The notes under the pieces: model-generated
Databases searched by the model: none
The model's input: only the letters and a program-made list of their open reading frames with translations
Told to the model about the DNA's origin: nothing
NCBI GenBank assembly: GCA_965208905.1
Contig: OZ242365.1
Span: 128,001-192,000, forward strand
Length of the DNA: 64,000 nt
Reading direction: 5' to 3'
DNA from: Nitrosopumilaceae archaeon
GTDB lineage: Archaea; Thermoproteota; Nitrososphaeria; Nitrososphaerales; Nitrosopumilaceae
Part shown: piece after piece, positions 12,320 to 30,359 of the stretch
Layout of the letters: the number at the start of each line of letters is the position of its first letter
Position numbering within the stretch: position 1 is the first letter of the stretch
Made by a program: the position numbers and the translations under genes

Positions 12320-12373
12320 CTGGTAAGTTATCGGTAGATGTTCCTTGCTGGTAAGTGTCGGTAGATCGTCCTT
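12320..12373. repeat. Imperfect tandem repeat, 2 x ~27 bp (CTGGTAAGT..TCGGTAGAT..TCCTT)
   Basis: Units 12320-12347 and 12348-12373. Confidence 0.8.
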
Positions 12374-12581
12374 AGAGGTGTTTTGTATGGGGGCTTAGCC
12401 CTGTGGGACAGGCCTGGGCTGGTAACTTATCCGCGCTTGAAAAGCCCATGTTAGAATTACAATATTCTCCAAAAAAGCCGTGATTTTTACATTTCAAGTC
12501 CGCACCACCCACCAACAACCACAATGCGCAAATACGGAATCTTGGAACAACCTTAAAACGTACCTCGGGAAAAACAATACC

Positions 12582-15038
12582 GTGAAGCCATTCCACAAGA
12601 TCCTCGAAGTCAGACCTGATGTACAGGACGGCACATTAGACCAATCTGCATATGCGGCCAATCTGGGTGATGTAGTGTCTGATATAGACAAACCTGCCGC
12701 CAAAGAATACCGCAACCCTGTACTATTCAGAGAGATGACATATGAGACTGAAGGAATGCGCAAGGCATTAGATCACATTCGTGTACGGCTACAAGACGGC
12801 AAGGGTAATGGATTAAGACAGCTAGAGACAAGTTTTGGTGGTGGAAAGACGCATGCAATGATTGCAATGTATCATAAATGCAAGGACTGGGATACTACAC
12901 CTGTTGTCATAGACGGCCAGTCCCTGCGCACAACATCCACGTTATGGGGCGAGATAGAACGGCAGTTAGACGGTAATATACAAAAGATGGCCGGCCAGGT
13001 TGCACCTTCAGGAGACCAAATCTATGAGTTGCTACACAACAGGAAGAAGCCCATACTCATACTGATAGATGAGATCTTCAACTATGTGGCAGGCGCGGCT
13101 GCCATACCAATAGGCAATTCAGACTTGGCTGCACAGACCATAATATTCATGCAGAGGTTATACGGCCAGCTAGGTAGTCTGCAAAACGTATGCTTGGTGA
13201 TGTCTCTATCCAAACGTGATGATGTACTTGGTACTGATACCGGTAATCGCACTGCAAAAATACAAAATGAGTACTACTCAAAACTACAAAAGATAGCCGG
13301 TAGGCATCACCAGCTAGACACCATATCTGAGGATAACGACATATCACACATAATACGTCGCAGACTATTCAGTACAAGTGAAGAGACCATACAGTATGGT
13401 GCAAAGGACACTATACAGTGGTGTATAGAACAGATGGTGGAGGGTGAATCACTACTAGGTGATGACATAGAGAAGTACAAGGAGAGATTTGCCAACACAT
13501 ACCCATTCACGCCAGATGTAATCGACACACTACACAAAAAATGGGCATCCTACCCGACATTTCAGAGGACTCGCGGGGTACTGCGACTACTCTCACTAGT
13601 AGTGCACTCGTTGTTGGAGTCCAAGAGGTCTTGGATTGCACCAAGCGATATTGACTTGTCCGTACCTGAGATACGCCAGGAATTGTTAAAGCATACCGGC
13701 GATAACACCGAGAGTGTGATATCTACCGACATAGTGGGAAGCGATGCATTATCCAGAAAGGCAGATGAAGAGATAGGTGTTCGTTGCGCAGCAAGCATAT
13801 TCATGTATTCATTTCCGCCCAGGACTGGTCGTGGTGCGACATATGAGGAGGTAAAGCGCTCCACCTTCACGTATAACATAACACACTCGTTTATTGGAGA
13901 TACAGTGGGTAAACTACTGCGGCGTTGTTTCTATCTTGATGAGACAGATGACAAGATGTTGTATTTCGACATAAAGCCAAACATAAACCACATGATAGAC
14001 CAGGCCAAGCGGAATGTATCTGATGGAACAGTACATGATGAGGAGCGAAATAGATTGGATGGAGCTATAGATGGCGGGATGTTCGGTGACATACACATAT
14101 GGCCTGATGAGACCGAGGCATACAACATACCAGACAGGCCGGTTTTACAGTTGGTAATATGCAAGAAGGATGATCCGGAGTGGTGTGCAAAGGTCGTGAA
14201 CGGCACTAACAAGTCGCGCCGCATAAACATGAATGGCCTGATATTTCTGCTTCCCAGCAATGGGATTATGCTAAGTGATCTGTTGCGACTGTATCTAGGC
14301 GTGAAGTTTGTCAAAGGGAGTTTGTCTGCAGAGTACAAGGCTTCCACGCGCTCCTACCTGAACTCGGAGATAAAGCGCGCAAAGGACGGAATAGGTGATG
14401 AGTTGTGCAAAAAGTATTCTGTGGTGTATGTTCCGGCGGAGGGCGGTAAGGTCAGAAAGATTCGCGACTATATGTTCAATCCCGCCACTGACAGCTTAAA
14501 GTCGTTGGATAGTCTGATGTGGGAGCGCCTCACCAAGGAAGACCATGTGGCCGCCAGAATAGCCCCGGACATCGCAGCGCGATACGGGAAGGATGCAGAC
14601 GGCGCGTACGAGTCGATGATACGCACGCCGGGCAGCATAATGCCCGCATCCTTTGAGGTTGTACGGGAGGCATTCGAGTCTGATGAACCAGAAGTACCCG
14701 AGACTCCGGACACGCCTACGCATGGAGGGCGTCCATGGGGAGGTTCAACGTGGGATGAGCCAATACAGGATGAGCCAATACAGGAACCAGAAAAGACGTA
14801 TGAGCGCGTACTGTATACTGATGTGGTCGACGCGGCAAGGTTGACCGGCATGCGCTGGATGCTTCGGTCGCCGCAGGAACTATCTCTTAAGGGATTTGTC
14901 TGCAACATAAGCCAGCGCCCTGATGGAATGTACGACATACGCGTGGAGATGGGAGGTGCGGTCCCGGACAGTGTGGTGTCCAACATAAGACCCACCAACC
15001 GGGGAAAATTGGAGAAGGATGACGGCTGGGACGAATAG
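12582..15038 (+). CDS. DUF499 AAA+ ATPase (BrxC-related)
   Basis: 'LETSFGGGKTHAMIAMYH', 'LILIDE', 'YPF', 'FQRTRGVLRLL'; GTG start ~30 nt after a TTAAAA box. Confidence 0.9.
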   Translation: MKPFHKILEVRPDVQDGTLDQSAYAANLGDVVSDIDKPAAKEYRNPVLFREMTYETEGMRKALDHIRVRLQDGKGNGLRQLETSFGGGKTHAMIAMYHKCKDWDTTPVVIDGQSLRTTSTLWGEIERQLDGNIQKMAGQVAPSGDQIYELLHNRKKPILILIDEIFNYVAGAAAIPIGNSDLAAQTIIFMQRLYGQLGSLQNVCLVMSLSKRDDVLGTDTGNRTAKIQNEYYSKLQKIAGRHHQLDTISEDNDISHIIRRRLFSTSEETIQYGAKDTIQWCIEQMVEGESLLGDDIEKYKERFANTYPFTPDVIDTLHKKWASYPTFQRTRGVLRLLSLVVHSLLESKRSWIAPSDIDLSVPEIRQELLKHTGDNTESVISTDIVGSDALSRKADEEIGVRCAASIFMYSFPPRTGRGATYEEVKRSTFTYNITHSFIGDTVGKLLRRCFYLDETDDKMLYFDIKPNINHMIDQAKRNVSDGTVHDEERNRLDGAIDGGMFGDIHIWPDETEAYNIPDRPVLQLVICKKDDPEWCAKVVNGTNKSRRINMNGLIFLLPSNGIMLSDLLRLYLGVKFVKGSLSAEYKASTRSYLNSEIKRAKDGIGDELCKKYSVVYVPAEGGKVRKIRDYMFNPATDSLKSLDSLMWERLTKEDHVAARIAPDIAARYGKDADGAYESMIRTPGSIMPASFEVVREAFESDEPEVPETPDTPTHGGRPWGGSTWDEPIQDEPIQEPEKTYERVLYTDVVDAARLTGMRWMLRSPQELSLKGFVCNISQRPDGMYDIRVEMGGAVPDSVVSNIRPTNRGKLEKDDGWDE

Positions 15039-17613
15039 GCTCATTGGTACGATAATACCAATAAATGATATATCAAAGGGTGGAGCCGCAGAGAAGAAGA
15101 GGGGTCGCGGTAGAATCAACAACTTACATCGGTGGTGGGCTTCGCGGCCTACTACAGTATCCCGCATCACAGCATATGCAGCACTGGTTGATCCGCCAAT
15201 AGAAGAACATAAGAAAATGATACTAGACATGTGCGACTATGATAATACAACCAAACCCGAACGGATAGCAGTACGGGATGCCGCGCGCAAGCGAATCAAA
15301 GAAAAGTGGGAAAATCCTCCAAAGGTGCTGGATCCGTTCGGCGGCACGGGGGCGCTGCCGTTCAGCGCCGCGTGGCTGGGCTGTGAATCACATTCTATGG
15401 ATTACAATCCTGTTGCTGTTATATTACAAAAGTGCGCGTTGGAGTATCCGACCAGGTACGGGCATGAACTCAAGGAAGATGTCATGCGGTATGCGAAACA
15501 AGTTGGCGAGCTGTTGAAGGAGCGTACCACGCCTTATTATCCGGGCGAGTCGCACTACGGGTATATCTGGTGCCGGACAATCCGGTGTAAGTGCGGGTGT
15601 ATAATCCCACTTATACACGACTACACACTCTCAAAAAGTTATGGTATGCATTTCCGGCCCGCTGCGCGAGACGGCGAGGTTGAATTCACCATACACGACA
15701 AGGGTGAGATACCTCCCGGTCAGGTGGGAGGTAGGCGGGCCATATGTGTAAACTGTGGACACACGTACACCAACATAGAGATACGAGACATGGTATGGGA
15801 CCACGGCTCGGAGATGATGTGTGTTGCCACATCCGTACCAAAGCGAGGGAGGAGTAAGTCGTATAGGTCGGTTGATGCGGATGACCGGACACTGTATGAG
15901 TCATGCGCCGCGCAGCTGAAAGAGTGTCGTGCGCAGTTTCGCGAGAAATATGACATAGACCCAATACCTGACATCGTCATCCCCATGCCAGACGGCCTGG
16001 AGTATAGGCCGGGTGGACCGGTATGGCATGTCTTGCGCATAGCTACGTTTGGCCACACCCGTTGGTCGCAACTCTTCAACAACCGGCAGCTACTGTGCAT
16101 GGTGATACTATTGGATATACTGCGCGAGATCGAGGCGGACGTAATAAAGAATCACGGCATGGAGCGCGGCATTGCCATAATGACTTACCTTGGGCTAATG
16201 ATGGACAAGACTCTGGAAAGGTACTGTAGATTGTCACCTTGGCTAACAGATAGTGGCAGAGTCACACATTGCTTCTCCCAACAAAATCTACGTAACACGT
16301 GGGACTATCCGGAGGTTGCCCCCCACATATTATGGGGGCAGTCAATCACCCATATTTCGGACGGCATGAACGCGGCCCTCTCCAACAACACCGTATGCGA
16401 CGTGCGACGGGCCTCGGCCACCAACCTACCATATGATGACTGTACATTCGATGCCGTATGCACGGACCCGCCGTATTATGATGCCATGCAGTACTCATAC
16501 ACGTCCGACTTCTATGTGTGGCTGAAGCGCTCCATTGGACATTTACACCCTGAATTATTCCGCGGCACGCATACTCCAAAGAAAAACGAGGTGATTGAGA
16601 CAGAAAGCCTGGCCATGCATATAACACCGGAATGTAAGGTGCGAGACAGTGATGGCTATCAACAGCTAATGTCACGGTCACTACACGAGATGCATCGTGT
16701 GTTGAAACCAGATGGTATACTCACATTAGTATACGCGCATAAGACCACTGAGGGTTGGGAGACCCTCATCAAATCAATATTAGAGGCGGGATTCACGATA
16801 ACAGCGGCCTGGCCGGTCGATACTGAGAGTTCATCCCGCATGAAATCCCGTGGTACGGCAGCCCTTGCCTCATCAATATACATGGTGGGCCGTAAGTGGG
16901 AGCGCAAACCGGTAGCCGAGTGGCGCACAGTACAGTTAGAGTTCCGCGAGCATGTGTGCGCCATGCTGGACAGGCTCATCAAGGCAAACATAACGGGCTC
17001 GGACTTTTACATTGCGGCCATCGGGTCCGCTCTGGAGATATTCGGTAAGTATAAGGCGGTGCGAAGAAGTAATGGCGAGCAAATCACTATAGACGAAATA
17101 CTTGATGAGATACGCACCCTGTGCTCGGAGTTCATAGTAAAGATGCTCACACAGGGTGGTGGCGGAAACATAGATCCGCTAACCAAGCTCTACATAACGT
17201 GGCGGTGGGCGTACGGCAATCAAAAAATACACTTTGATGTTGCGCGAAAGTTGTTCACCGGTGTGGGACGAGACATGGACGAATATTCGGGCAAGGGTGG
17301 TATAATACGGCGCAAAGGCAGTGAAGTAAAGCTGCTGACGCATCAGGAGCGCGATGAAGAGATACGTATCAAGAGCCGCATAGATGCCATACATCAGGCC
17401 ATCCGCTACTGGCACGCCAACAAGCTTGACGACATGAAGGAGATATTGCGCGAGACTGGCAATATAGGCGATGTGTTCAATGCCGTCTGCAAGGCGATTG
17501 CAAGGGCCGGGAATGGAGAGACAGATGAAGCGAGGGAGATCGACCAGTTCCGTTCAGGGCGAGAAGAAGAGATAAACGAACCTGTGGGGCAGCTAAGGAT
17601 GACTGATTACTGA
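15019..17613 (+). CDS. DUF1156 adenine DNA methyltransferase with Zn-finger insert
   Basis: 'LHRWWASRP', LDPFGGTG, TDPPYYD, 'YAHK...WETLI', 'ALASSI'. Confidence 0.9.
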   Translation: MTAGTNRLIGTIIPINDISKGGAAEKKRGRGRINNLHRWWASRPTTVSRITAYAALVDPPIEEHKKMILDMCDYDNTTKPERIAVRDAARKRIKEKWENPPKVLDPFGGTGALPFSAAWLGCESHSMDYNPVAVILQKCALEYPTRYGHELKEDVMRYAKQVGELLKERTTPYYPGESHYGYIWCRTIRCKCGCIIPLIHDYTLSKSYGMHFRPAARDGEVEFTIHDKGEIPPGQVGGRRAICVNCGHTYTNIEIRDMVWDHGSEMMCVATSVPKRGRSKSYRSVDADDRTLYESCAAQLKECRAQFREKYDIDPIPDIVIPMPDGLEYRPGGPVWHVLRIATFGHTRWSQLFNNRQLLCMVILLDILREIEADVIKNHGMERGIAIMTYLGLMMDKTLERYCRLSPWLTDSGRVTHCFSQQNLRNTWDYPEVAPHILWGQSITHISDGMNAALSNNTVCDVRRASATNLPYDDCTFDAVCTDPPYYDAMQYSYTSDFYVWLKRSIGHLHPELFRGTHTPKKNEVIETESLAMHITPECKVRDSDGYQQLMSRSLHEMHRVLKPDGILTLVYAHKTTEGWETLIKSILEAGFTITAAWPVDTESSSRMKSRGTAALASSIYMVGRKWERKPVAEWRTVQLEFREHVCAMLDRLIKANITGSDFYIAAIGSALEIFGKYKAVRRSNGEQITIDEILDEIRTLCSEFIVKMLTQGGGGNIDPLTKLYITWRWAYGNQKIHFDVARKLFTGVGRDMDEYSGKGGIIRRKGSEVKLLTHQERDEEIRIKSRIDAIHQAIRYWHANKLDDMKEILRETGNIGDVFNAVCKAIARAGNGETDEAREIDQFRSGREEEINEPVGQLRMTDY

Positions 17614-20600
17614 TGAAGTATGGCGACTTGAAGCCGGACATGCTGATAGACGGTCCGTATTGGGACAGGCCGGTTACACTGGAACAGTTCGAGAGTGCTG
17701 GACAGCACACCAAACTAACCATACGACGTTACAATGGCACTACGAGCACTATACGTGTGAAACTTGAAGATATAGACATTCATCACACACAGTACGGCAC
17801 GCCATGGCGTACAAGGGCGGCGGTTGACATGCTGCGCCACAAACATGCAAAGGGTGGTGGGGCCGACATGGGTGGGATGGACCCCCTTCCGCACCAGATA
17901 CAGTCAATACGCCGCATAACCAGCCAGTACGATAACATAAGGTTCCTGCTGGCAGATGAGCCCGGGGCCGGCAAGACCGCAGTCGCGTCCAGCATAATAC
18001 GCGAGATGAAACTACAGGGACGTGCGGACCGCACACTGATAGTTACACCCGCACACCTCAAATACCAGTGGAGGGCTGAGTTGAAGCGATTCACCGGCCT
18101 GAAGGGATACATAGTTGAGGGAGGCAGTATAGACCAGTCCAACCCGTGGCCGACAGACGAGCACGACATACTCATAACATCCATTGATTACGCCAGGGGT
18201 GAGAAGAACCTTCAGGTATTGGCGCGCATGGAGTTTGATCTGGTGGTTGTGGATGAGGCCCACCACATGAACTCGTCCGGCAAGAACGTAAGTAAACGGT
18301 ACAGGGTGGGCGAGGCACTCTCAAACATATCGAAACACATGCTGTTCCTGACCGCGACACCGCACCGCGGCAAGCCTGAAAACTTCCAGCGCCTCCTGAA
18401 ACTACTAAATCCGGAACTGTTCCCTGACGGCCTTTCATCCGAGGAGGTGGCTGTCCGCAAGGGGCCGATGTTCCTGCGCCACCTCAAAACGGAGATGACG
18501 GACATGGATGGCAGGCCAATATTTCCCAAACGCAGTGTAAGATCCCTCAAATACGAGATGTCCATACCGGAGAGCGACATGTATAAAATGGTGAGCAACT
18601 ATGTGCGCAAACAGCATCAGAGATTAGTAGAACAGGATGAGCGACAACTCGCACCATTCCTAATACTACTGATACAGAAACGCATGGCATCCAGCACGTA
18701 CGCGCTGCAAAAGACGTTGGAGCGACGCAGGGACAAACTCAAGGACTATCTGGAGAGGGACATATTCCCAAGACCCAATCTGGAGTACGAAGAAGTGGAC
18801 GATGAGTATGATGAGGATGACCCCGAGCATGAGCGGCGGGACGACGAGTTGAGCGGCATAAGCGCGTCGCGCACGCCAGAAGAGCTGAAGGTAGAGATTG
18901 CCGAACTGGACAGCTTGGTTGAGGCAGCAGACCAGGCGGCCAGCACAAAGCCGGACAGGAAGCTTGAAAAGCTGCTCGACATAGTAAAGAGTCTCGGTGA
19001 CGGCAAACTGCTGGTATTCAGTGAGTACATGGACACCATACAGTATCTGGAGAAGCATATTGGTGAGCGGGTATGCCGTATAGACGGCAAGATGAAGCAA
19101 CAGCAACGAGATGCTGCTGTGCAGGAGTTCCGTGATACATACCGCATAATGCTGGCAACAGATGCCGCGCGAGAGGGAATGAACATGCAGTTCTGTAATA
19201 CAATGGTGAACTATGATTTGCCCTGGAGTCCAATTGTACTGGAGCAGCGCATGGGTCGTCTGCACAGATACGGCCAGGAGAAGGATGTTACAATACACAA
19301 CATGATAGCAGACAACACAATAGAGGGGGACGTATTGGAGAGGCTGGATGCCAAAATCAAAGAGATAGAGAAGCAATACGAGGCAGTAGACGTCATAGGA
19401 ACAATACTGTCGGAGGTCAACATAAAGGACATAATGGTGGAATCGATTACGGGGCGCGTCTCCGATGGCGTCAGTAAGCGGATGCGGTATGTCGGGGAGA
19501 AGATGCGGCGGGAGCAGGAGATGTTGGAGCGCACACCGGTGGATCTGGAAGCGGCTCTCAGGGCAAAGGGTGAGATTGCTGCAAAACATGTTGATGGTAA
19601 ACATCTTGTATACATGATGCAGAACATATTCAGTGGATTGGGCGGGAGCGTCAAGTCAACCAACACAAAGACCACGATACAGGTACCATCAGAGTTGCGC
19701 AGTGGGCCGTTTAGGCGCAAGCGGGAGTCGTTTGACATACCCGTGCAGGAGGCTCTGTCAAGGGGCACCAAACTGTACAAGCACATAGAATCCTGGGTCA
19801 TGGACAACTGCAGGGCCGACCTGCAGGGAGGGTCGGTGTTTGCAGGCAACTATGAAGGCCACATAGTGTTCCATATAACCAAATTGAAGGACAGTTCGGG
19901 TAAGACTGCTGAAGTTTTGGTGCAGGCCCACCGCGTCGGCGCGGACGGTGTTGTGCAGTCCGTGCATCCGGATATATTGAGCGAGTTGGACGATATGGGT
20001 GGAGACCCCGGAGCCAGGCCGGAGGTTGGCAGTGCAACGGACAGGGCGTTTGAGGATGCCCAGGCTAGGTCAAGGCAGCTGAACGAGGAAGCGAGAGAGT
20101 ACTGGAGGCATCGGAGTGAGACGATGAACATAGGCGGGGGTTTGGAGTCGCTACGGATGGAGTTGGGCGATCTCATGCCCGGGACGCCAGAGTGGAAGGC
20201 GATAGATGAAAAGATAAAGAACTTGGAGTCGTGGGAGGGTAACATGCAGAGGAGCGCCAGCACAGACAAGCTGCACGTGGAGGAGCCTGTATTGGTGGGC
20301 TGGGTCAGGGTAGTGCGGCGCAAGGATACACAGGATACAGAGATACGCGGCATGAACCGCAGTATGGAGATAGAACGCAAAGAGGGTTTCATACCCGAGG
20401 ATGTCTCGAATAAACGCGGCCTTGGATACGATATACTATCAAAACATCCAGATGGCCGGGAGCGTCATATAGAGGTGAAGGCGCGGTGTTCATTCACACC
20501 AGTACAACTCACCCCCAATGAGGAGAATGCACGTCTTAAAGACCCGAACTACAAACTACACGTGCACGTAATTGATGGTGATACACATTATACAACCATC

Positions 20601-20705
20601 TTAGACGATCCATCTAAACTGATTACAAAGAAAAATCTTTCATATGATGCTCCAATTTCTGAGCTTAACCGTCTTGGTGTAAAGTATGAGTATTCTGAAG
20701 AGTAA
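17613..20705 (+). CDS. SNF2-family helicase with C-terminal DUF3883 nuclease
   Basis: LLADEPGAGKT, DEAHH, TATPH, QRMGRLHRYGQ; C-terminal 'GYDILS...IEVK...LTPNE'. Confidence 0.92.
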   Translation: MKYGDLKPDMLIDGPYWDRPVTLEQFESAGQHTKLTIRRYNGTTSTIRVKLEDIDIHHTQYGTPWRTRAAVDMLRHKHAKGGGADMGGMDPLPHQIQSIRRITSQYDNIRFLLADEPGAGKTAVASSIIREMKLQGRADRTLIVTPAHLKYQWRAELKRFTGLKGYIVEGGSIDQSNPWPTDEHDILITSIDYARGEKNLQVLARMEFDLVVVDEAHHMNSSGKNVSKRYRVGEALSNISKHMLFLTATPHRGKPENFQRLLKLLNPELFPDGLSSEEVAVRKGPMFLRHLKTEMTDMDGRPIFPKRSVRSLKYEMSIPESDMYKMVSNYVRKQHQRLVEQDERQLAPFLILLIQKRMASSTYALQKTLERRRDKLKDYLERDIFPRPNLEYEEVDDEYDEDDPEHERRDDELSGISASRTPEELKVEIAELDSLVEAADQAASTKPDRKLEKLLDIVKSLGDGKLLVFSEYMDTIQYLEKHIGERVCRIDGKMKQQQRDAAVQEFRDTYRIMLATDAAREGMNMQFCNTMVNYDLPWSPIVLEQRMGRLHRYGQEKDVTIHNMIADNTIEGDVLERLDAKIKEIEKQYEAVDVIGTILSEVNIKDIMVESITGRVSDGVSKRMRYVGEKMRREQEMLERTPVDLEAALRAKGEIAAKHVDGKHLVYMMQNIFSGLGGSVKSTNTKTTIQVPSELRSGPFRRKRESFDIPVQEALSRGTKLYKHIESWVMDNCRADLQGGSVFAGNYEGHIVFHITKLKDSSGKTAEVLVQAHRVGADGVVQSVHPDILSELDDMGGDPGARPEVGSATDRAFEDAQARSRQLNEEAREYWRHRSETMNIGGGLESLRMELGDLMPGTPEWKAIDEKIKNLESWEGNMQRSASTDKLHVEEPVLVGWVRVVRRKDTQDTEIRGMNRSMEIERKEGFIPEDVSNKRGLGYDILSKHPDGRERHIEVKARCSFTPVQLTPNEENARLKDPNYKLHVHVIDGDTHYTTILDDPSKLITKKNLSYDAPISELNRLGVKYEYSEE

Positions 20706-20764
20706 TAGTTTGGAGATGGCTATCTATGTCCATTAACTTCTGGATTACTACCTCATAACAGCAC

Positions 20765-22636
20765 TTAATTTTGGTCACACGGATACATCCTGTCCAACCA
20801 ATCTGATTTCTTGGACCAATCACCTTCCATAATCTTGTATGGCTTTCCCAATATTTTGGCAAGTCTCCCTGCTGTTTCTTTGTACTTGAACGATGGTTTG
20901 TAGTAAACAAATGTACCACAATCATATACCTGAAGCATACATACATGATCTGGGAGTAGTTCATCTGATGTCAGATACTTGAGTGCCGTTTGATCCGCCT
21001 TCTGAATCAAAAAGTTTTGTCCCTGTTTAGGTAGTTTGTCTATCTTTTTTTTGGGCTTTTTATTCTCTATTTCCCAATCAAAATTGTAAGGACGACGATT
21101 AACGCCGGTATCAAACAGGTATCTTATGCGATGCCCCATACCAGTCATACCATGCCAAGCCTGAATGTTGATTATATCATCCGAATTGTCCTTGTCAAGG
21201 AGTTTAATATCAATAGCAATATATCTCTCATCCACCTTATCGGACTCTGCGGCTTCAACTGTGAAGGTACCATCCTCATAAAAGAGCCTGACAAGTTCTG
21301 TGTGCCAAACATGACCATCATGTCGCCGCTGGCCATCTGTTACATCATCAAAATTCTCTATGAGTTTTTTCATGTATGGTATATCCCTATGTGCGTCCAA
21401 CCATTCTCGTAATTTATCCCTGTATGCCTTTTCATCAGGGGTTTCGTCGTATTCAATACCAAAATATTTACATCTCTCAACCCAGAACACTTTGGCAATA
21501 CATGAATGTAGACAAGATTCATACTCAGCAAGTAGCGCCAAGGCATTTCTGTTATTGGTGGTTTCCCTAGCCTTCTCAATTTCCGTAATTCTGTCCTTAC
21601 ATTTCTTGCTATATGACATGTTAATTAGACCGTTGGTCGGGTCTGCATCCAGATTTAGGAGTAGATGTAATGCTACATCCGCCTTGTCTTTTGCCTCACA
21701 GACAGACATCCACTTGATCATCGTATCCAGTTCACTAGGCAATATGGAGGCGATCATGTTGGATCTTTTCTGTATGTCTTTGTTCACCCACGCTTGGATT
21801 GTACTTAGTGCCTCATCATTATTCAACACTCCACTTTGTTTACGCAATAATGACCACACCTGTAATCGATGATCTTCCATATGACGCAGAATTGCATTCC
21901 ATGTTGCCTTTGTGTTGAGTTCCAACATGTTAGTTAGTATGTGTGACCACTCAGAACCATGTGTTATATGTTTACGCGTTTGTTCAATGGCCCGTGTGAT
22001 GGATTTGGAGATTATTTTAGTGTCAGCCGGATTTTCCTTCATATATCTGACCAATAACTCTTTCCACTCCCAGAATGACCCTTGTACATATCTTGTGACT
22101 GGATATGCAAGAAGTACGTCACGTATGAATCGCGGCAGGGGCGTGTTGGACTTGTAATAATAAGAGAAGCACATCTTTTGCGCATTGCTTTGAGATACAT
22201 CATCACATTTGAGTAAGACTCCGATTAATTTTTCCAGTGATTCTACTGACAAATCCTTGATACGTACACTGTTACTCCCAAACCATCTGAAGGCATAAAT
22301 TGTTTGACCTTTCGTAACAGCATCACATATCCTGTTAATTGCAACATCACTGTCATTTGAGAAAATACCTTCAATATACCCGTCTTGGAAGTTGTGTGTA
22401 GTTGTACTATCTTGTACTTTTAGTATGTCGAATAATAGAGTAGCATCTATATCGGCTTGGCCCACCAAACATCCGAACTGCCCGACGCGCTCGCTATTAT
22501 GAGTGGACAATTTTTGTAGATGTGTAGAATCTAACGGTAATTGTGCCAAGTGCTTGAGTTTGCCAATCTCATCATCTGTCGCCATGGCATCAGGCACATA
22601 GACATATTGTTGCATTTCTGCTTGGTAGTCTGCCAT
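20765..22636 (-). CDS. Hypothetical 623-aa protein; helical N-terminus, possible nuclease-like C-terminus
   Basis: Long ORF; 'IDIKLL...INIQAW' is only suggestive. Confidence 0.6.
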   Translation of the reverse strand: MADYQAEMQQYVYVPDAMATDDEIGKLKHLAQLPLDSTHLQKLSTHNSERVGQFGCLVGQADIDATLLFDILKVQDSTTTHNFQDGYIEGIFSNDSDVAINRICDAVTKGQTIYAFRWFGSNSVRIKDLSVESLEKLIGVLLKCDDVSQSNAQKMCFSYYYKSNTPLPRFIRDVLLAYPVTRYVQGSFWEWKELLVRYMKENPADTKIISKSITRAIEQTRKHITHGSEWSHILTNMLELNTKATWNAILRHMEDHRLQVWSLLRKQSGVLNNDEALSTIQAWVNKDIQKRSNMIASILPSELDTMIKWMSVCEAKDKADVALHLLLNLDADPTNGLINMSYSKKCKDRITEIEKARETTNNRNALALLAEYESCLHSCIAKVFWVERCKYFGIEYDETPDEKAYRDKLREWLDAHRDIPYMKKLIENFDDVTDGQRRHDGHVWHTELVRLFYEDGTFTVEAAESDKVDERYIAIDIKLLDKDNSDDIINIQAWHGMTGMGHRIRYLFDTGVNRRPYNFDWEIENKKPKKKIDKLPKQGQNFLIQKADQTALKYLTSDELLPDHVCMLQVYDCGTFVYYKPSFKYKETAGRLAKILGKPYKIMEGDWSKKSDWLDRMYPCDQN

Positions 22637-22846
22637 ACGAAGACATTATGCATATCATGTAAAAGCATTACAGTGAGTGGTTCCTCCCCCCCCCCCCCCA
22701 AAATATCACCAGTGTCAGTATGACCCGCGCTTCCACGAAGCATGGGTACGGTGGCCACCATTCCACTTCAGGTCAGGTAGACGGGCGGTGGCTGCGCGGT
22801 GGACAAACAATCAAGATATTTATTGCTCCGCCCGGTTCATCACGCC

Positions 22847-23914
22847 ATGAAGACTGCCCTGTTTCTTGGAGCCGGGGCCTCGGCGTTCATACAATATCCT
22901 ACCGCCAGGGGGTTGATGGAACGCCTACGGAACCGAGTACAGGACGGTGAATCTGGAGGTATTGGCGAAGTCACCAAATACACCATTGAGGGCTATGATG
23001 ACATTGAGAAGTTGTACGACGGAATAGACCGTCTGTTGAGTATGCGTTATAGTGCATACCCTGACAGCTCTAACATCGGACCGATCATCCGCACATTGTA
23101 TGACAGGAACAACTCGTTCAAGGCGACACTGGATGAATTGAAAAATTTGAAGTCAGTCATCAACGACATACTCCTTGAATCGTTCAAATTCAATACCAGT
23201 AACATCGAATCAGTCGTGCGAATGTATGACATGGTAAGGCAAGTCATCAAAGACGATGAGTCAGACGGACTTCAGATATTCACTACCAACTACGACATGG
23301 TGATTGAGAAATACGCGAGGGAGATTGGCCTCGAACCTGTCAATGGCTTCCAGTATCGCAAGAGCACGGACAATGTCTGGGTCGGCAGGTGGGAGACTAC
23401 GACTCACCGTAAACCACTCTACTTGACTAAACTGCACGGCTCGGTGAGCTGGTACGAGGATGATAAAAAGATCTGGGAGACGGATGATGTCAAACAAAGA
23501 CCTGCAAACCGTAGCGTCATGATTGCTCCTACCGAGGGGCCAAAGGACTACAGTAGGACGCCGTTTCCGGAACTACTGAAGCATTTTGAGGATGAGATTG
23601 TCAAGGTTGATGTATTGCTGGTGATTGGATTCTCGTACAGGGATAAACATATTGTAGATATAATCAAAAATAATCTGGACAGGGGGATGAAGATGATCAC
23701 CGTCTCACCGACATCCATGGACGATATAAAACTCGTGGACACAGATGTCCCTAAACCTATACTGACTTTTACAGGAAGCTCATTTTCCGCGATAGATTAC
23801 AGAATAGTCCTGATCAACGAGGAGTTCAAGTTGGAGACGATTGATCGTATGGTTATGTCGTTGAATGATGGCCTCTATTATGCTTCCCATAGTCCTAAAG
23901 ACAATTCAGCGTAA
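22847..23914 (+). CDS. SIR2-like (SIR2_2) protein
   Basis: LFLGAGAS, FTTNYD, KLHGS, VIGFSYRD. Confidence 0.9.
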   Translation: MKTALFLGAGASAFIQYPTARGLMERLRNRVQDGESGGIGEVTKYTIEGYDDIEKLYDGIDRLLSMRYSAYPDSSNIGPIIRTLYDRNNSFKATLDELKNLKSVINDILLESFKFNTSNIESVVRMYDMVRQVIKDDESDGLQIFTTNYDMVIEKYAREIGLEPVNGFQYRKSTDNVWVGRWETTTHRKPLYLTKLHGSVSWYEDDKKIWETDDVKQRPANRSVMIAPTEGPKDYSRTPFPELLKHFEDEIVKVDVLLVIGFSYRDKHIVDIIKNNLDRGMKMITVSPTSMDDIKLVDTDVPKPILTFTGSSFSAIDYRIVLINEEFKLETIDRMVMSLNDGLYYASHSPKDNSA

Positions 23915-24630
23915 TGACTATACATCATACGCGGAGATGTCCAATCATCGACGTATCTGGGAACCCGACGGCAGTCGTATGTGGAGTGGAAATGATGGTC
24001 AATTAAGGCACAGGCGTAACTTTACAATAGGTGCCGTTAATGCAATAGTCTAGGAAATATGGTCTGGAGTGGAAGCGTAGGTTACACCGATGTTGGACGT
24101 CATCACATGGGACAATTCATTCAAAGGCGAGCATAATTACATAACTTGGCATATCCAAACCACCTATGTAATCTCCCCACCATACACGAGTGGGCGAATA
24201 CCTTTTTGATGTGTGAAACTACTTATCAAAGGGCATCACTCTTATTCCAAATGTTGGAGTTGGCGGTTTGATCAAGATAACCCACGATTTTGTGGCTAAA
24301 GTCCGGACGGCGCGGAGTATCACCTTGTGATATCATGCATGGCCTACAAAGTGCGAGACCTGTACATACCCAACCCCTCTACTTTGTCGGGCATAAATCA
24401 ACTGAACGATGTTGTTACTCACGCCTAAAATTACAGTAGTGAAAGTATGTACAGGCATCGCCCTGTGGTGTGATACATAACGCCTATCACAAACTCCATA
24501 AGGTACGGCCAGACGCTCACCGTACAGTCTTACCATATTGTGTGGTGGTGTGATGGTCTGCAACAAGCGCACATTTCCATCCACTGTAGTCATCCTATTA
24601 TTTTTATAACTTGAAGATGATATTGCTACA

Positions 24631-25560
24631 ATGAAACTACCCAAACTCGGCGATTTCCAACCTCACATAGACTACCTCAAAGACGGCTTTGCTTGTGATT
24701 TTTTTGTATTGGAGAGAATGTTTGACTCAATATATCAGGAAATATGTCTGCTTCACATATACCATCCGCCAACCGATGCTGCCCCACAGATGGAAAAAAT
24801 ATTCAATGAATTGAAAGGTATCGGCTTTAAGGAGTTGGTGAGAAACGAAGGAAAGTTTACTGTGCCGAGCAAAAACATAGACATTGTTCTGATTGGCTAC
24901 CATCACGGCAATGACATGGAGTATGTCAATGAGCTACTATCAACATTTGAAAGGAATTATGGAGTACTCAGACCTGACATATTGATATATCCTCTAGATG
25001 AGGAGGAACCCCGGATTACAGAGTTTAACCGACTTGAGGTTATGTATTGCCCGCATTATGAGTTTACCAAGCATGCACTACACATGATTATATCACATTT
25101 ATGGAATCGTCGGAACTTCATATATGAGCGCGGATTTTATGTGCTGCTTGATCGACTATTAAATGAAAGTCTGCTACTGGCCTTGGGTATTGGTAAAAAA
25201 GAAGATACAATCACACTGGGCCAGAAAATAGGGAAATTAAGAGGTGTGTTGAAGGGGCATTTGCCGAATAGTGATGCTGAGTTTGTACTAAAGTTTTTGA
25301 ACTTTTTGGTTGAGGTTAGAAATTACGGCATACATGGTAATGAAGAAGCGTGGAAGAAAAGAAAAGAGTCATATGACAAAGTCAGACCGGATTTAGTACA
25401 ACGTGGCTGGATAATTCCAAGTAATAGTAAGTTAGCAAGTATGGATGAGAAAACAACAAAAGAACAGAATGGACACAGTCTACTAAAGATTCTTACTGTC
25501 TCAACGTATATCATCAAGGACTGGGTGAACGAGTACGCGAAACTTAGCGGCCAGACATGA
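24631..25560 (+). CDS. Hypothetical protein with HEPN-like C-terminus
   Basis: 'TLGQKI...EVRNYGIHG' (RNxxxH). Confidence 0.55.
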   Translation: MKLPKLGDFQPHIDYLKDGFACDFFVLERMFDSIYQEICLLHIYHPPTDAAPQMEKIFNELKGIGFKELVRNEGKFTVPSKNIDIVLIGYHHGNDMEYVNELLSTFERNYGVLRPDILIYPLDEEEPRITEFNRLEVMYCPHYEFTKHALHMIISHLWNRRNFIYERGFYVLLDRLLNESLLLALGIGKKEDTITLGQKIGKLRGVLKGHLPNSDAEFVLKFLNFLVEVRNYGIHGNEEAWKKRKESYDKVRPDLVQRGWIIPSNSKLASMDEKTTKEQNGHSLLKILTVSTYIIKDWVNEYAKLSGQT

Positions 25561-25599
25561 TCACTGCCGAAGTCTAACCTATCGCCAATCTGTACCAAA

Positions 25600-26359
25600 C
25601 ATTAGAGGACTGGAAACGTAACAGTGGTGCATAAAAAGTGTAGTACCGGCCACAATCATATGATGTTTTATCAGAATCAGGGCATGTCCGACGGGGTTTT
25701 TTGCTCTCCTGACCGGTCCGACATCTCATAATCATCTGATATGCCGCCTGTATCAACACTCTGCCCCAACAGTGATGTATAATTCAGTAATATCGCCTAC
25801 TGACTCATCTGTAATGGATATGGCGACTATCTTCATGGTCTGCGTGTCAACCATCGCGTGCATCTTTACAAAACCACGTTTTACCTTCCACTTTTTGCTC
25901 ATCCACCTCCCCTATTGTGTTGCTTTAGCCCTGTTGTATCGACTGCCAGTATACGAGAATATTTTTTGTTTGACACTGTTATCGTTTCATTCTGATTTAT
26001 ATTCACATGTATCATGCCTATCCGCTTGCGTATATGGCTAAAGGAAGGTGTGTTGGATTCTCCAATCATCTTTCCGATTATGCCCTCAAGCTGCCTGTAC
26101 CGGACTCCAATACCGACCCTGAGGGCAGCGGTCAGCATAATCAATGTCTCCGAATATTGGTACGGGGCACCCACCTTTCCCCTGTTGGCATGGTCGACTT
26201 CATACTTCCACTCAGGGTTATACTGTACGACATGTCTGCCCCACGCTTGACGTAGTGTATGGTTGTCGGTTTTTACCATAAAATAGATGGTTTAATGATG
26301 GGAGCTATATGTGTTTTGATCAATGTGGCGGTATTCAGGAATAGTTACGATACAAAGTT
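25600..26359 (-). pseudogene. Truncated/frameshifted IS5-family element, paralogue of 56960-58184
   Basis: Closely matches 57570-58184, including terminus TTACGATACAAAGTT; frameshift near 25905; 3' half missing. Confidence 0.9.
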
Positions 26360-26406
26360 GTATAGAAGTAATACCTATAAAATATGATATATATGTACAT
26401 ATACTG

Positions 26407-26919
26407 ATGTCGACAGAAGATACCTTTGAGTTCTCCACATCGGATAGGGCGCTCATGGTTATCAGTGATGCCACCCTATATGGTACTACACGTCTTCAAA
26501 AGTACGGATTTCTACTTACCCAACAATACAAGAAAGAGATGAATGTTATTGCAGAAGCCGAACCGAAATTGAAGTTTTATGACGATTGGGAGCCACTCTG
26601 GTTCGGACCATTCAGTAAGAGTTTGGCCGATGACATTGACATCTGTATGGACAACAGTCTCATATATAGGGAGGCTGTCAAACTGTCTCAGGACTCATTC
26701 AGGTATGGCTTGACACTTAAGGGGCGTGTGCGGTGGCGGGTCATGCTACGTAAATTCAACAACGAGATGACTGCCATCCACAAGAAGGTGATGAACCTAC
26801 AAAAAATGCGTTTGGGAAGGCTGTTGGAGAACATATACAGCGCGTACCCTGAGTATACTGTGAATAGTACTATACTGAAAAAGATTCAAGATTCTGAGCG
26901 AAAAGTGTTCCGTATGTGA
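26407..26919 (+). CDS. YwgA/SocA(Panacea)-like antitoxin-type protein
   Basis: 'GTTRLQKYGFLL...WFGPFSKSLADDI...IYSAYPEY'. Confidence 0.6.
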   Translation: MSTEDTFEFSTSDRALMVISDATLYGTTRLQKYGFLLTQQYKKEMNVIAEAEPKLKFYDDWEPLWFGPFSKSLADDIDICMDNSLIYREAVKLSQDSFRYGLTLKGRVRWRVMLRKFNNEMTAIHKKVMNLQKMRLGRLLENIYSAYPEYTVNSTILKKIQDSERKVFRM

Positions 26920-27860
26920 TATTGGAGAGGTATTATTGCGCACAAGAAGCATGCAAAGGAAATTACTGCGGACACACGCAAGTCCGGACTATACTCAAGA
27001 GCTGTTGCAAACCCTATAATGCATATCATAACCATGCAAATACCGTCAATAATTATACCATTCCTATTGGCCTCTATTTTTCCTCTAATGTTGCCCAGCT
27101 CCATGTATGTATTAGATAATGAACCACTTCCTTTTTCATGAGCATTGTTAGCAGAATCGCCTGTAGATTGTCCACTGTTACCATGAGCGGTCTGAGCAGA
27201 ATGGTCTGTGTCATCCCACTTCACATCTATTGTCCTATTGCGCGTCCTATATTCCTCATCAACATATAGCAGACGCAGTACGGTACCCCCGGCAACTATG
27301 ACCATTAATCCAGAGATAATCGCGAACACTCCGATACTCGCCCCCATACCAATTACATCTCCTGACTGGCTCTCCCCATTCGTAGTGGCAGGAATGATTT
27401 GGATGAATCCTAACACTAATGCGAATCCCAACAGTATCAAGATCATCAAAACGGCTAACCATCTGATCGTTGAAATCCAACTTGGTTTATTCCAGCCCAA
27501 CATATATGTGGGTGCTGGTAATAGTAACACTGACATCCATCCCGCGGACGGCATATCATGTACATAGTTCAATGCTACCAAAACAGTGAGTGCTGTAATA
27601 CAAACCAAACTAACAATTATCACATACTTTGTACTAGAGATTTTCTCACCTAGTTCACTTATTCTCCAAGAAGATAGTTTAAGGAAAATCGAATATTCTT
27701 CTTTAAATGTTTCTTTATACTTAGTGTTCTTTATCCAGTTGTCGTGTATAGTGTCCAAAATACCAGCCCACTCTTGTCTCTCTTTGGAGTATTGTGTATG
27801 AAGTATACAACGCGCAGTCAATAACCAGATCAATATGCCAATGACTATGATATCAATCAT
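26886..27860 (-). CDS. Hypothetical multi-pass membrane protein
   Basis: 324-aa ORF with about 7 hydrophobic segments. Confidence 0.65.
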   Translation of the reverse strand: MIDIIVIGILIWLLTARCILHTQYSKERQEWAGILDTIHDNWIKNTKYKETFKEEYSIFLKLSSWRISELGEKISSTKYVIIVSLVCITALTVLVALNYVHDMPSAGWMSVLLLPAPTYMLGWNKPSWISTIRWLAVLMILILLGFALVLGFIQIIPATTNGESQSGDVIGMGASIGVFAIISGLMVIVAGGTVLRLLYVDEEYRTRNRTIDVKWDDTDHSAQTAHGNSGQSTGDSANNAHEKGSGSLSNTYMELGNIRGKIEANRNGIIIDGICMVMICIIGFATALEYSPDLRVSAVISFACFLCAIIPLQYHIRNTFRSES

Positions 27861-28689
27861 CCCATAGCCTCCAAACGATCATGGTTTAAACCCCACAAAC
27901 TCTATCCAGTCTTTGACATACTCAACATACCACTGGTTTACCATAATGTATACATGAATTATATGACATAAAATATTATCTCAAGCTGTGTAAATATATA
28001 TAGATACTCAACCACTATTACACCTACACTCACGTTTGCGCTGAACTGTCTCAAATATGGAGTGTGTCTCGAAGTGGTGCGCGAACTCGGCCCGGCATAT
28101 GTTTCCATGAGACTGACCGAAATCACCTTGCTGAGGCCCCGTGTTAGAGAAAATATAATGAAATGGTGGAATAGATGATTGAGAGTAAGAATGTATCTTC
28201 GTAGATATAGATGTGATCGAGTATTGTGCACATTAGACAACTATCTCTAAAATTTTTGTCGGCGGTCCACCTATCCGCTAAAACCTCAGCCTGCTCCAAG
28301 ACGGTCCGCGTGGTTCTCTTCTTCCTGTCCTATAGCAAGGACTTGTGGGATTGGCTATGTGTTCAAGCGCGTCTTGAAGGTATCCGAGATAGCCTACATC
28401 GTGTCGATGAACTCTGGTAAGGGTTGTTATGATATCAGTTCCCAGGTATAGCGGCGTGTATAAGTTTCTGCGCACTGGTTTTCAAATACATGACGGTTTT
28501 GTCATTGTGGCAGCTTGTTTCTGCCATACATGTTTGGCGCCGTACCAGGCGCTACATGCGTAGCATGTCCCGCTATATGAGAAGAATTATGACACAGAAC
28601 TCTGCACTATATCTACTTACATAGTCCTAAATAGTATCAACACTAGCTCAACATTATTGATAAACTACGTCACCCGAACTATATAAGGA

Positions 28690-29757
28690 ATGACACGCGA
28701 AGACCACGGCAGACGCATAGCATCAGAGAATAGAATTAGAAAACTGGGCAGGAACTCATACGCTGTACCATCTGAGACTATACAGAACCATGAGTATGTA
28801 GTACGACTGGGCAAGGTGGGATGGGTGTGTGAATGCCCCGACCATACTGAGAAAAAATCAGTATGTAAGCACATACACGCAGTCTTTGTATTTCGCAAGC
28901 CGGAGGCGCGTTCCATCTGGTATGTACCGGAAATACAGTGCCCCAAATGCCTTAGTAAACAGACGATATCGCGGGGCCAGAGCAGGTACTGTAAAATATG
29001 TAACTCGCGCTATGTACCTTATGGAATAAAGTCCCGTTTTGGGCTAGACACAATCATAGAGGGAATGAATATGGTGTATAGTGGTAGCTCACTCCGCAAG
29101 ACCGAATACATATTGGCGCAGCGCGGAATAGACGTATCGCATATAGGCATACTGAAATGGCTCTCCAAGTATGGCACAATGGTTGATGAATACATCAAGA
29201 CACTCCGGCCACGGGTTGGCGACCATTGGAGAATCGATGAAGTTTACATGAGTGTAGCCGGTGTACGGATGTATGCGTTTCATATGCTAGATACCGAGAC
29301 GCGATACGTAATAGACAGTATGGTTTCAGAGAATAAAGGCACGGATGATGTGCGACCGCTGTTCAGGTCATGCATGAATATAGCCGGCAAGAAGCCGTAT
29401 TTGTTGTCATCTGACGGTGCGGGGAATTTTGGTGAGGCGTGGCGCGATATATATAAACAGAAGAATCCGCGCGACATGTATACTATACATGAGAGTAAGG
29501 CTCGTGACAAGACCCCACTGCACAACAACCAGATGGAGTCGTGGAATGGGAATACGTTTAGGCTGCGCGAGCAGGGGTGTCGTGGATTGAAAAAACAGGA
29601 CTCTGTGATTCTGGCAGGGATACGAATCTACCATAATTTTATACGCCCACATCTTGCGCTGGGTGGAGATGTCCCGGCTGAGAGGGCAGGACTGCGTCTT
29701 GAGGGAGTGAATGGCCTCAAGATTTTAGTCCAGAATGCCGCGATGCAGAAAAAGTAA
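28690..29757 (+). CDS. IS6-family DDE transposase with N-terminal SWIM Zn finger
   Basis: CECPDH..CKHIHAV; WRIDEVY, LSSDG, NNQMESWN, YHNFIRPH. Confidence 0.9.
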   Translation: MTREDHGRRIASENRIRKLGRNSYAVPSETIQNHEYVVRLGKVGWVCECPDHTEKKSVCKHIHAVFVFRKPEARSIWYVPEIQCPKCLSKQTISRGQSRYCKICNSRYVPYGIKSRFGLDTIIEGMNMVYSGSSLRKTEYILAQRGIDVSHIGILKWLSKYGTMVDEYIKTLRPRVGDHWRIDEVYMSVAGVRMYAFHMLDTETRYVIDSMVSENKGTDDVRPLFRSCMNIAGKKPYLLSSDGAGNFGEAWRDIYKQKNPRDMYTIHESKARDKTPLHNNQMESWNGNTFRLREQGCRGLKKQDSVILAGIRIYHNFIRPHLALGGDVPAERAGLRLEGVNGLKILVQNAAMQKK

Positions 29758-30017
29758 GATTTACAAATTTTTTACAAAAAGCTATGAAAATTACATACTG
29801 TTTTTGAGTATATAAGCACGCGCGGATAAGTTACCAGCCCATGTCAAAAATAGCAGGGCGGTAACACGTCAATACGGAACTGTCAAAAACTTGTGTGATG
29901 GCGTACACTGTCAAATTTGTGTGATGGTGTCAAAAAGGGTACACGAATAGAAAAAGAACAACAAACAAACAACCTTGTAGTGTGATAATTTAAATGTGCA
30001 TGTTGTGTATATTGTAC

Positions 30018-30359
30018 ATGGAAAAAACACAAGATACGCCTCTTACCCGCGAAGAGTTTACACAATTCATGGCCGGATTTACTAAAGACCTGAATGTTGC
30101 GTTTACCAACTTTTCTGACAGTATAGACACCCAAATTATTCACATCTTTATGCGACTTGATGATATTGACCGAAGGATAGATAGGTTGGAAAGTAGAATA
30201 GGTAATATCGGGAGTAAAGTAGACAGTATGGGAAGTGATGTACATGACATAAAGAATGAGACAAAACTCATAACACCAATCTTTGAGTTGACACGTATGG
30301 ATGGGCATGATATTGGAGAACTCAAATTACGTGTAAGGAAATTAGAAACTCAATCCTAA
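30018..30359 (+). CDS. Small coiled-coil protein (cargo)
   Basis: Heptads 'LDDIDRRIDRLESRIGNIGSKVDSM'. Confidence 0.7.
   Translation: MEKTQDTPLTREEFTQFMAGFTKDLNVAFTNFSDSIDTQIIHIFMRLDDIDRRIDRLESRIGNIGSKVDSMGSDVHDIKNETKLITPIFELTRMDGHDIGELKLRVRKLETQS

Follow-up and report, generated by a model that had tools for sequence, protein, structure and literature searches.

A probable IS6-like unit transposon with defence cargo in a Nitrosopumilaceae archaeon, present in two copies with crosswise flanks

In this study, we analysed a stretch of 64,000 nucleotides (nt), the window, of the genome of a Nitrosopumilaceae archaeon (assembly GCA_965208905.1, contig OZ242365.1). This genome (G000) is a single contig of 2,214,775 bp (C1), and the window corresponds to C1:128001-192000. 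At positions 12415-29841 it contains an island of 17,427 bp with at least ten cargo open reading frames (ORFs), among them the three genes of an Hma defence system (HmaC, HmaB, HmaA) and a SIR2-family gene, and with a transposase gene (t1) at the right end. Judged from its sequence, the island is probably an IS6-like non-composite unit transposon, in which one pair of inverted repeats encloses one DDE transposase and defence cargo and which would move by a copy-in mechanism. A sequence-only reading of the window had proposed such a unit-type IS6-like cargo transposon. This proposal, including membership in a wider group of elements, is supported by an 8-bp target site duplication (TSD) shared by two copies, by reciprocal flanks together with empty sites in the close relative G005, by sibling elements in the same genome and by relatives in metagenomes. 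In the following, the window copy is named E1, the copy at a second locus 1 Mb away (locus 2) is named E2, and T and Z are the elements found in their flanks.

E1 is bounded by TGGGCTGGTAACTTATCCGCGC, which is present at 12415-12436 (+) and 29820-29841 (−) and thereby forms 22-nt left and right terminal inverted repeats (IRL and IRR) with 0 mismatches. With up to 3 mismatches allowed, the window contains no further copy of this 22-mer, and two matches were obtained in 0 of 100 dinucleotide shuffles, so that the exact 22-bp repeats reported by the sequence-only reading stand as described. The inverted repeat reaches 25 nt at 96% identity (12415-12439 / 29817-29841). Its left arm lies 44 bp before the long ORF starting at 12480 (the real start of HmaC is probably at about 12582) and its right arm 62 bp past the stop codon of t1 at 29757. 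The placement of the repeats relative to the DUF499 operon and the transposase was also given correctly, as was the lack of a copy upstream of the transposase, where a search allowing as many as 6 mismatches found none. Passages of a 2021 review describe the repeats of the IS6 family as short, with G residues at the tips and a cTGTt-like core (PMC7986276). In E1, the sequence is T-GGGCTGGTAAC..., i.e. the GG is located one base inside the tip as set by the TSD, and the core of the repeat is CTGGT, not CTGTT; the tips of the sibling elements start with GGTTCTGT, GGAACTG or GGGGCTGT. Next to the IRL, a conserved subterminal region (12437-12494, +) is also found in a 714-bp element (X3), in a relic (L3) and in a contig of a same-genus metagenome-assembled genome (MAG), all described below. 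In the whole genome, a third exact copy of the 22-mer is located at C1:1116873 (+). With three sites in total, the 22-mer is not a frequent dispersed repeat, which the sequence-only reading had named as a possible objection.

The third 22-mer is the IRL of E2. From its outermost base onward, 8,278 bp of locus 2 match window positions 12415-20692, identity with E1 thus starting at the first base of the repeat; there is no difference over the first 8,222 bp, the 11 mismatches being confined to 20637-20690. The sequence to the left of the locus 2 IRL belongs to T, a multi-copy TnpB insertion sequence, and is its left end (junction ...CTTGTCAAAA / TGGGCTGG), and T resumes to the right of the IRR in the window (CCAGCCCA / TGTCAAAAATAGCAGGG...). 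Mapped on three intact copies of T, the left flank of locus 2 ends at a position p and the right flank of the window starts at p−7 with all three references. The two T flanks therefore overlap by exactly 8 bp, TGTCAAAA, which is a TSD divided between E1 and E2: the right copy is located at 29842-29849 (+) and the left copy at C1:1116865-1116872, beside the locus 2 IRL. It follows from this exact overlap that the left and right repeats were joined to one staggered cut in T. According to passages of the 2021 review, a duplication of 8 bp is the size typical of IS6-family elements (PMC7986276). The T sequence in the window continues at 29850-29875 (+) and, beyond a further insertion, at 33564-35068. 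On its other side, the island cuts the left end of Z (12316-12414, +), an IS6-like element with a two-part terminal repeat (ACTTCTGGTAAGTTATCGGTAGATG ... GCTGGTAAGTGTCGGTAGATCG). The inner repeat of Z has one other copy in the genome, inverted, at C1:1135418-1135444 (3 mismatches in 27), 1.1 kb to the right of locus 2. The arrangement is Z-left, E1, T-right in the window and T-left, E2, Z-right at locus 2.

The corresponding empty arrangement was found in G005, a genome that shares with G000 a 1113-amino-acid (aa) protein at 100% and a 768-aa protein at 99% aa identity and flanking DNA at 94-98% identity. In G005 there is no match to the left repeat, the SIR2 gene, t1 or the Hma operon, save 122 bp at 74% identity, and the HmaC homologues that it does encode reach only 34-35% identity. 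In this genome, the segment to the left of locus 2 (up to G000 1116780) directly abuts the DNA right of T (from G000 163067 = window 35067), and both T and E are absent from this junction. Likewise, G000 105956-124196, to the left of the island, and the DNA from 1135467, to the right of Z at locus 2, flank one 11.4-kb stretch specific to G005. The comparison with empty sites thereby gave the outcome expected for a mobile element, the close relative being without it at both sites. Relative to G005, a reciprocal exchange is seen, and E1 and E2 occupy precisely its breakpoints. Since the TSD is split, the flanks are reciprocal and G005 has these flanks joined the other way round, the two ends must have been inserted in one event, and a chromosomal rearrangement is marked by the two copies. 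Such a rearrangement would be expected from replicative transposition in the manner of IS26 or from a crossover at a later time.

To the right of position 20636, E1 and E2 differ in content. In place of the IS5-type fragment and the unnamed ORFs of E1, E2 carries a PDC-M23A/B pair (4.3e-54; 1052.9 bits), and the same ends thus enclose partly different defence cargo. E2 is without a transposase. At the equivalent of window position 28702, inside the start of the transposase gene, a 3.4-kb IS6-like element (element C) is inserted, and the 78-bp segment spanning the transposase start (28625-28702, +) is 97.4% identical to E2, where C cuts it. At locus 2, C is not surrounded by a duplication, as would be the case if it had deleted adjacent DNA.

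In the mechanism that we infer, t1 would bind the two 22-25-nt repeats and move the whole unit by IS26-style copy-in, i.e. replicative, transposition, which would duplicate the element together with 8 bp of the target. If one such event connected a site in Z with a site in T, two copies would result, each with one flank from Z and one from T. Among the named ORFs of the island no resolvase gene was identified, so these products would stay as two copies with crosswise flanks until host recombination acts on them. Later, the insertion of C, together with a deletion of the DNA next to it, would have removed the transposase end of E2, and the right-hand cargo of one copy would have been exchanged, leaving the SIR2 module in E1 and the PDC-M23 module in E2.

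The transposase t1 (28690-29757, +) has 355 aa and is present as a single copy in the genome. It consists of an IS6/IS240-type DDE domain behind an N-terminal SWIM-type CxCx11CxH motif, located at residues 47-61, and also contains a second Cys cluster. Pfam DDE_Tnp_IS240 is matched with 48.1 bits (cut-off 27), and the best NCBIfam match is the IS6 transposase, covering profile positions 5-201 of 202. The protein contains DE[V]Y, SDG and NNxxESxNG motifs, which we take to be the catalytic regions of IS6 transposases. From these features t1 is classified as a distant IS6 member. Twelve other full-length paralogues, 37-42% identical to t1, are encoded in the genome, and another genus has a transposase with 42% identity to t1, behind which lies a GGAACTGGTAACTT-type end. 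Apart from t1, an IS5-type fragment is the only DDE gene of the island.

The genomic neighbourhoods of all 13 full-length transposase loci were searched for repeats with exact 12-nt seeds within 6 kb. Six of the 13 lie inside units of 3.4-6.4 kb bounded by repeats of 23-50 nt, E1 is the seventh, and the other six have no clear pair. These six loci represent five distinct sibling elements, since D and F are copies of one. Element A (3.36 kb, TSD GAATTTTT) carries a methyltransferase and an unnamed gene. Element B (29876-33563, −; 3.69 kb) has 54-nt two-part terminal repeats and is inserted 26 bp from the right end of the island, in the same copy of T. Its cargo comprises, besides the SWIM-IS6 transposase (30356-31528, −), a methyltransferase-HNH fusion (31986-33503, +). 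The sequence-only reading had described this adjacent 3.7-kb element as having the same architecture and a clean TSD, and the TSD is indeed found, as the 8 bp GTCAATAC (29868-29875 / 33564-33571), once the ends are set at GGAAC. A and B show the complete unit architecture, with a TSD around the whole unit. Element C (3.41 kb, no TSD) carries a D12 methyltransferase and a HaeIII-type endonuclease, and a 6.44-kb element (L019, C1:1368404-1374844, no TSD) carries a methyltransferase-HNH fusion and a candidate defence pair, PDC-M32A/B.

Elements D (C1:1337692-1341644) and F (C1:1851328-1854931), 3.60 kb each with a methyltransferase and a NotI-like endonuclease, show 0 mismatches in 3,602 positions. 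Their TSDs are reciprocal: D is flanked by GTCCGTTG on the left and AAAATAAC on the right, F by AAAATAAC on the left and GTCCGTTG on the right. In a contig of G005 (C2), the left flank of F and the right flank of D are contiguous and form an empty site. With D and F, the pattern of E1 and E2 is found independently a second time. The right end of D carries a 351-bp tandem duplication.

Relatives were also found outside this genome. In metagenomes, 17 of 38 loci related to t1 were chosen for inspection because of sufficient flanking sequence, and ten of them have flanking repeats, spanning 3.05-13.5 kb. Perfect 8-bp duplications were present in five of eight elements checked and not in L033, L034 and L049. 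The largest of the five, L028 (109-13649; 13,541 bp), has 52-nt repeats, a SWIM-IS6 transposase and the TSD CCAATTTC; the others are L056 (GAGAAGAG), L037 (TGCCACCC), L040 (GTTCTGCG) and L030 (GCGAAACA), and all five show the unit architecture with a TSD around the whole unit. The cargo of the metagenomic elements consists of restriction-modification genes, namely type IIG enzymes, specificity subunits, GmrSD-HNH, a PLD nuclease and methyltransferases. L028 appears to hold a nested second element of the same kind, with two transposases and inner repeat pairs.

The link between the left end of E1 and the Hma operon recurs at two other places. A degenerate pattern of the repeat matched only one site in the genome contigs, in a contig of a same-genus Cenarchaeum sp. 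MAG, which is apparently the same as a contig of the same-genus genome G008. In this contig, a 231-aa ORF and then an HmaC homologue (72% identical) come after a related repeat and the subterminal sequence described above. The organism of the window therefore probably belongs to this genus of sponge-associated ammonia oxidisers. The second place is a third, diverged Hma operon in G000 (L3; C1:1644095-1658100, L020) with 68-73% aa identity, in which the subterminal sequence is kept and the tip has decayed. In L3, about 2.2 kb of extra DNA with an unnamed 484-aa ORF lie between the left end and the operon, and a fragment of a different IS6-like transposase lies downstream; L3 looks like the relic of a related transposon. 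HmaC homologues are present in 8 of 10 genomes of the genus, G000 included. Upstream of ten HmaC loci from other members of the genus, an E-like left end was found in one (L155), and two share only a 13-nt motif, which may be a promoter element.

Ends of similar sequence are also found on short elements of 0.7-1.5 kb (C1:376972-378456 (L021), 1947276-1948700, 1954623-1955336, 250605-252075 and 2209813-2211265), the sole gene of which encodes a TnpB homologue (Pfam OrfB_IS605 and TNB). Their terminal inverted repeats exceed 100 nt in X1, the one inspected, and their tips are similar to the 22-mer, from which they differ at 4-6 positions. Duplications of 8 bp, such as TTAGTCTA and CTCTGAAC, surround these elements. 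An IS6-type shell thus seems to carry TnpB as its passenger, and mobilisation may take place in trans.

Several observations weigh against the assignment of the island to an IS6-like unit transposon that was duplicated by copy-in. E1 has no TSD around its own two ends, a caveat already raised by the sequence-only reading and resolved by the 8-bp TSD that is split between E1 and locus 2. Its repeat of 22-25 nt differs from the two-part repeat of about 50 nt of the siblings, and since the short TnpB-only elements have similar repeats, the 22-mer-type end is not exclusive to t1. The IS6 score of t1, 92.4 bits, is below the NCBIfam equivalog cut-off of 125. Matches to t1 were found in 21 of 41 related genomes, with a best non-self identity of 46%, and in metagenomes 38 of 79 candidate stretches are related to t1, with a full-length identity of at most 36%. 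When 301 genomes of the order, including three of the nine other genomes of the genus, were searched with up to 2 mismatches allowed, G000 alone was positive for the 22-mer, and it was not found in the 300 others. Because no close relative of t1 was found and the 22-mer was seen only in G000, no independent second insertion of exactly this element is known. Furthermore, the differences between E1 and E2 to the right of 20636 comprise a 3.9-kb segment present only in E1, a 309-aa gene with 91.7% nt identity and different modules. One recent replicative event leaves these differences partly unexplained, and the 17.4-kb content of E1 in its present form may never have moved in one piece. Finally, E1 and E2 are in direct orientation, which a one-step intramolecular event in a single circle cannot yield.

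No conclusion can be drawn from this direct orientation, since G000 and G005 are also rearranged at many other places. With 60 synteny markers, of which 54 were placed and 6 had no match, order and strand were scrambled at many places. A model in which direct pairs result from a trans intramolecular event and one later inversion was dropped because of this broken synteny, and a fusion of two ancestral circles (0.96 + 1.22 Mb) was unsupported owing to the same scrambling. The cumulative GC skew of the genome was noisy and uninformative. The scrambled order despite a 100% identical protein indicates very fast rearrangement in this insertion-sequence-rich lineage.

Crosswise flanks, as seen for E1/E2 and for D/F, would also result from a crossover between two simple insertions. 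As the main alternative, which is less probable but has appreciable weight, two diverged variants may have been inserted separately, one with Hma and SIR2 into T and one with Hma and PDC-M23 into Z, and a crossover in Hma may then have swapped their left flanks. This would account for the right halves of E1 and E2, which differ in genes and in which the 309-aa gene is 8% diverged; the 8.2-kb stretch at 100% identity is an ideal substrate for recombination, and the genome is rearranged at many places in comparison to G005. However, the identity of the Hma regions does not result from a crossover and requires an additional conversion or a recent shared origin. D and F show the same reciprocal pattern with identical copies, for which replicative duplication is the simpler explanation, and the topological problem of direct copies is the same for a flank swap as for copy-in.

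It is improbable that the repeats belong to another mobilisation system, for example that of the short TnpB elements (X/Y, about 1.45 kb, TnpB only), with t1 being a passenger or an unrelated neighbour. X/Y have repeats identical to the 22-mer at 16-18 of 22 positions and 8-bp TSDs, X3 has the left subterminal sequence of the island, and G005 is without t1 yet holds X/Y-like internal sequence. Against this stand the association of the 42%-identical transposase from another genus with an end of the GGAACTGGTAACTT type, the pairing of one IS6-like transposase with such repeats in every sibling, and the IS5-type fragment as the only other DDE gene in the island. The 8-bp TSD and the GG-CTG tip are themselves IS6-type features, as described in passages of the review (PMC7986276).

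The island would be a remnant of an IS26-style two-copy pseudo-compound transposon if its left insertion sequence had been cut down to the outer repeat and the right one had lost its inner repeat. Such two-copy structures are the known way in which IS6-family elements move cargo (PMC7986276, in part), and yet we give this origin very little credence. The t1 gene is the only copy or fragment of its kind in the genome, no internal repeat is present at up to 6 mismatches, and in both genomic copies and the MAG contig the left repeat is joined directly to the Hma leader. At least five siblings (six loci) and the metagenomic elements show the one-transposase design with TSDs around the whole unit, and among the related elements found here none has a second transposase beside the left repeat. 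A coincidental or regulatory palindrome in an immobile island has next to no probability: nothing beyond the missing TSD around this one copy speaks for it, and it is contradicted by the shuffles, by the third 22-mer with its split 8-bp TSD and by the absence of the element from G005.

The cargo of the presumed unit transposon begins directly inside the left end with three genes on the plus strand. HmaC (12480-15038), a DUF499 AAA+ ATPase, matches Pfam DUF499 (7.5e-30) and PADLOC HmaC (1.2e-66). HmaB (15019-17613), a DUF1156 N6-adenine DNA methyltransferase, matches Pfam DUF1156 and N6_N4_Mtase and PADLOC HmaB (2.5e-81). HmaA (17613-20705), a SNF2 helicase with a C-terminal NOV_C nuclease-like domain, matches Pfam SNF2-rel_dom, Helicase_C and NOV_C (residues 910-984) and PADLOC HmaA (4.2e-111). 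These co-located genes constitute an Hma system as defined by PADLOC. The sequence-only reading had called the operon BREX-related, a label that was replaced by Hma: PglZ is absent among the 10 island ORFs scanned, and the side matches to BrxC (7e-7) and PglX (3.7e-11) are weak beneath the far stronger Hma matches. As stated in parts of Liu et al. 2024, protection against phage was shown for HmaA of a Halomonas strain (PMC11232893). The same three genes as in that system (PMC11232893, in part) are found here, with the difference that they lie directly inside a transposon end, in two identical copies and known from their sequence.

Further to the right, a 623-aa ORF without a family match (20765-22636, −) lies in the 3.9-kb segment missing from E2; its best value in a protein atlas was 0.76, which is uninformative. 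The SIR2-family defence-type protein (22799-23914, +) had been recognised by the sequence-only reading and is supported by Pfam SIR2_2 (5.4e-11) and PADLOC SIR2 (5.1e-29), with NCBIfam SIR2_antiphage (2.9e-13) below its cut-off. It is followed by a 309-aa ORF without a family match (24631-25560, +), also present in E2 with 87.7% aa and 91.7% nt identity, by the IS5-type insertion sequence fragment (25676-26359, −; Pfam DDE_Tnp_1_5 2.6e-10), which is multi-copy in the genome at about 91% identity, and by three ORFs of no assigned function in 26323-28240 (198 aa, +; 324 aa, −; 93 aa, −), the first with a weak match to PDC-M19A. For the 623-, 309-, 324-, 198- and 93-aa ORFs, no usable match was obtained from Pfam, PADLOC or NCBIfam, and the labels HEPN-like and antitoxin-like, previously assigned to cargo genes, found no support in these databases. 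A full copy of the IS5-type element is located at 57510-58184, 32 kb from the island fragment, and a solo end-like 28-mer of this insertion sequence (28583-28610; also 56951-56978) closely precedes the 78-bp transposase-promoter segment.

To the left of the island, an IS110-like element (12125-12315) abuts the tip of Z at 12315. Further copies of this IS110-family element are located at C1:1374821-1375035, 1908637-1908852 and 1695404-1695606. In all four copies the element ends ...GACACATA directly against (A/G)CTTCTGGTAA, and three of the four abut sequence that continues as an IS6-like terminal repeat; the right tip of the 6.4-kb element L019 is likewise abutted by an IS110-like element. The IS110-family element may target the tips of IS6-like transposons. 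Similarly, elements of the IS1111 group target the repeats of the Tn21 family. Just left of this insertion-sequence cluster, positions 7563-9501 encode a 480-aa AAA_15/AAA_21 ATPase and then a 168-aa ORF with a weak match to the TdeIII nuclease. Together the two may form a further small defence pair belonging to this variable island, which is wholly unlike the 11.4-kb island of G005 at the same place.

The element resembles the IS6/IS26 family (IS26, IS257, IS240) in its IS240-type DDE domain and in the 8-bp duplication, and to a degree in its repeats, with G residues at or near the tip and a CTG core; the crosswise flanks of two copies would also fit this family if they were left by copy-in cointegrates without a resolvase. 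In passages of the 2021 review, two-copy crosswise products that are not resolved are the behaviour described for IS26 (PMC7986276). In contrast to known IS6 members, which have 0.7-0.9 kb (up to 1.7 kb) and one gene, E1 and its relatives enclose 3-17 kb of cargo, and whereas known IS6 elements move cargo only as two-copy pseudo-compound transposons or translocatable units, one transposase and one repeat pair are present here. A single IS6 member with a passenger gene, ISDsp3 with one hypothetical gene, is mentioned in the parts of that review considered here (PMC7986276). The N-terminal SWIM-type zinc motif, the second Cys cluster and a score below the NCBI cut-off for IS6 set t1 apart from known IS6 transposases. 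N-terminal zinc-finger extensions are described in the same source, again in part, for the IS6 clades h and i, with transposases of 340-450 aa mostly from Clostridia (PMC7986276); t1 with its 355 aa is similar in size to these (PMC7986276, in part) and differs in its archaeal host and in the carriage of whole defence systems of up to about 16 kb.

Outside the IS6 family, Tn7-like transposons also carry largely defence cargo, as far as described in passages of PMC8649781, but their TnsABC machinery, target choice and host range differ. Tn3-family elements have transposases of about 1000 aa, repeats of about 38 bp, 5-bp duplications and a resolvase with a res site. One repeat pair around transposase and cargo and replicative cointegrates would be common to both, whereas none of these Tn3 features was seen here.

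In a 2019 survey of thaumarchaeal mobile elements, cargo-carrying DNA transposons were undetected in archaea, according to its passages on this point, and the word IS6 is absent from its main text (PMC6563490, in part). In a 2026 survey of archaeal insertion sequences, the word 'passenger' never occurs, and the passages considered contain no cargo-carrying IS6 element. No description of IS6-like unit transposons with defence cargo was found in the literature covered, the supplements to the IS6 review and the thaumarchaeal insertion sequence tables lying outside this scope. The enzyme and its chemistry thus appear to be IS6-like, and what would be new is the build as a unit transposon, the large defence cargo and the archaeal host.

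Concerning the wider group, the chances seem about even that SWIM-zinc-finger IS6-like 'defence transposons' are a widespread undescribed class and the first class of DDE cargo transposons in archaea, moving restriction-modification and defence systems of 3-17 kb by copy-in without resolution, and thereby spreading immunity genes and scrambling the chromosomes of sponge-associated ammonia-oxidising archaea. In addition, the short TnpB-carrying elements with matching ends may owe their mobility to these transposases. In passages of PMC7848895, transposases and restriction-modification genes are reported to be jointly enriched in sponge-associated Thaumarchaeota. If real, the class of defence transposons would explain this joint enrichment in those symbionts. 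The genome analysed here contains at least six IS6-like unit transposons bearing restriction-modification or defence genes, and two pairs of copies lie at breakpoints with reciprocal 8-bp duplications. Such elements would provide a concrete route by which defence systems spread among archaea, and they would be a naturally occurring case in which to study whether large cargo can be moved by a copy-in transposase like that of IS26.

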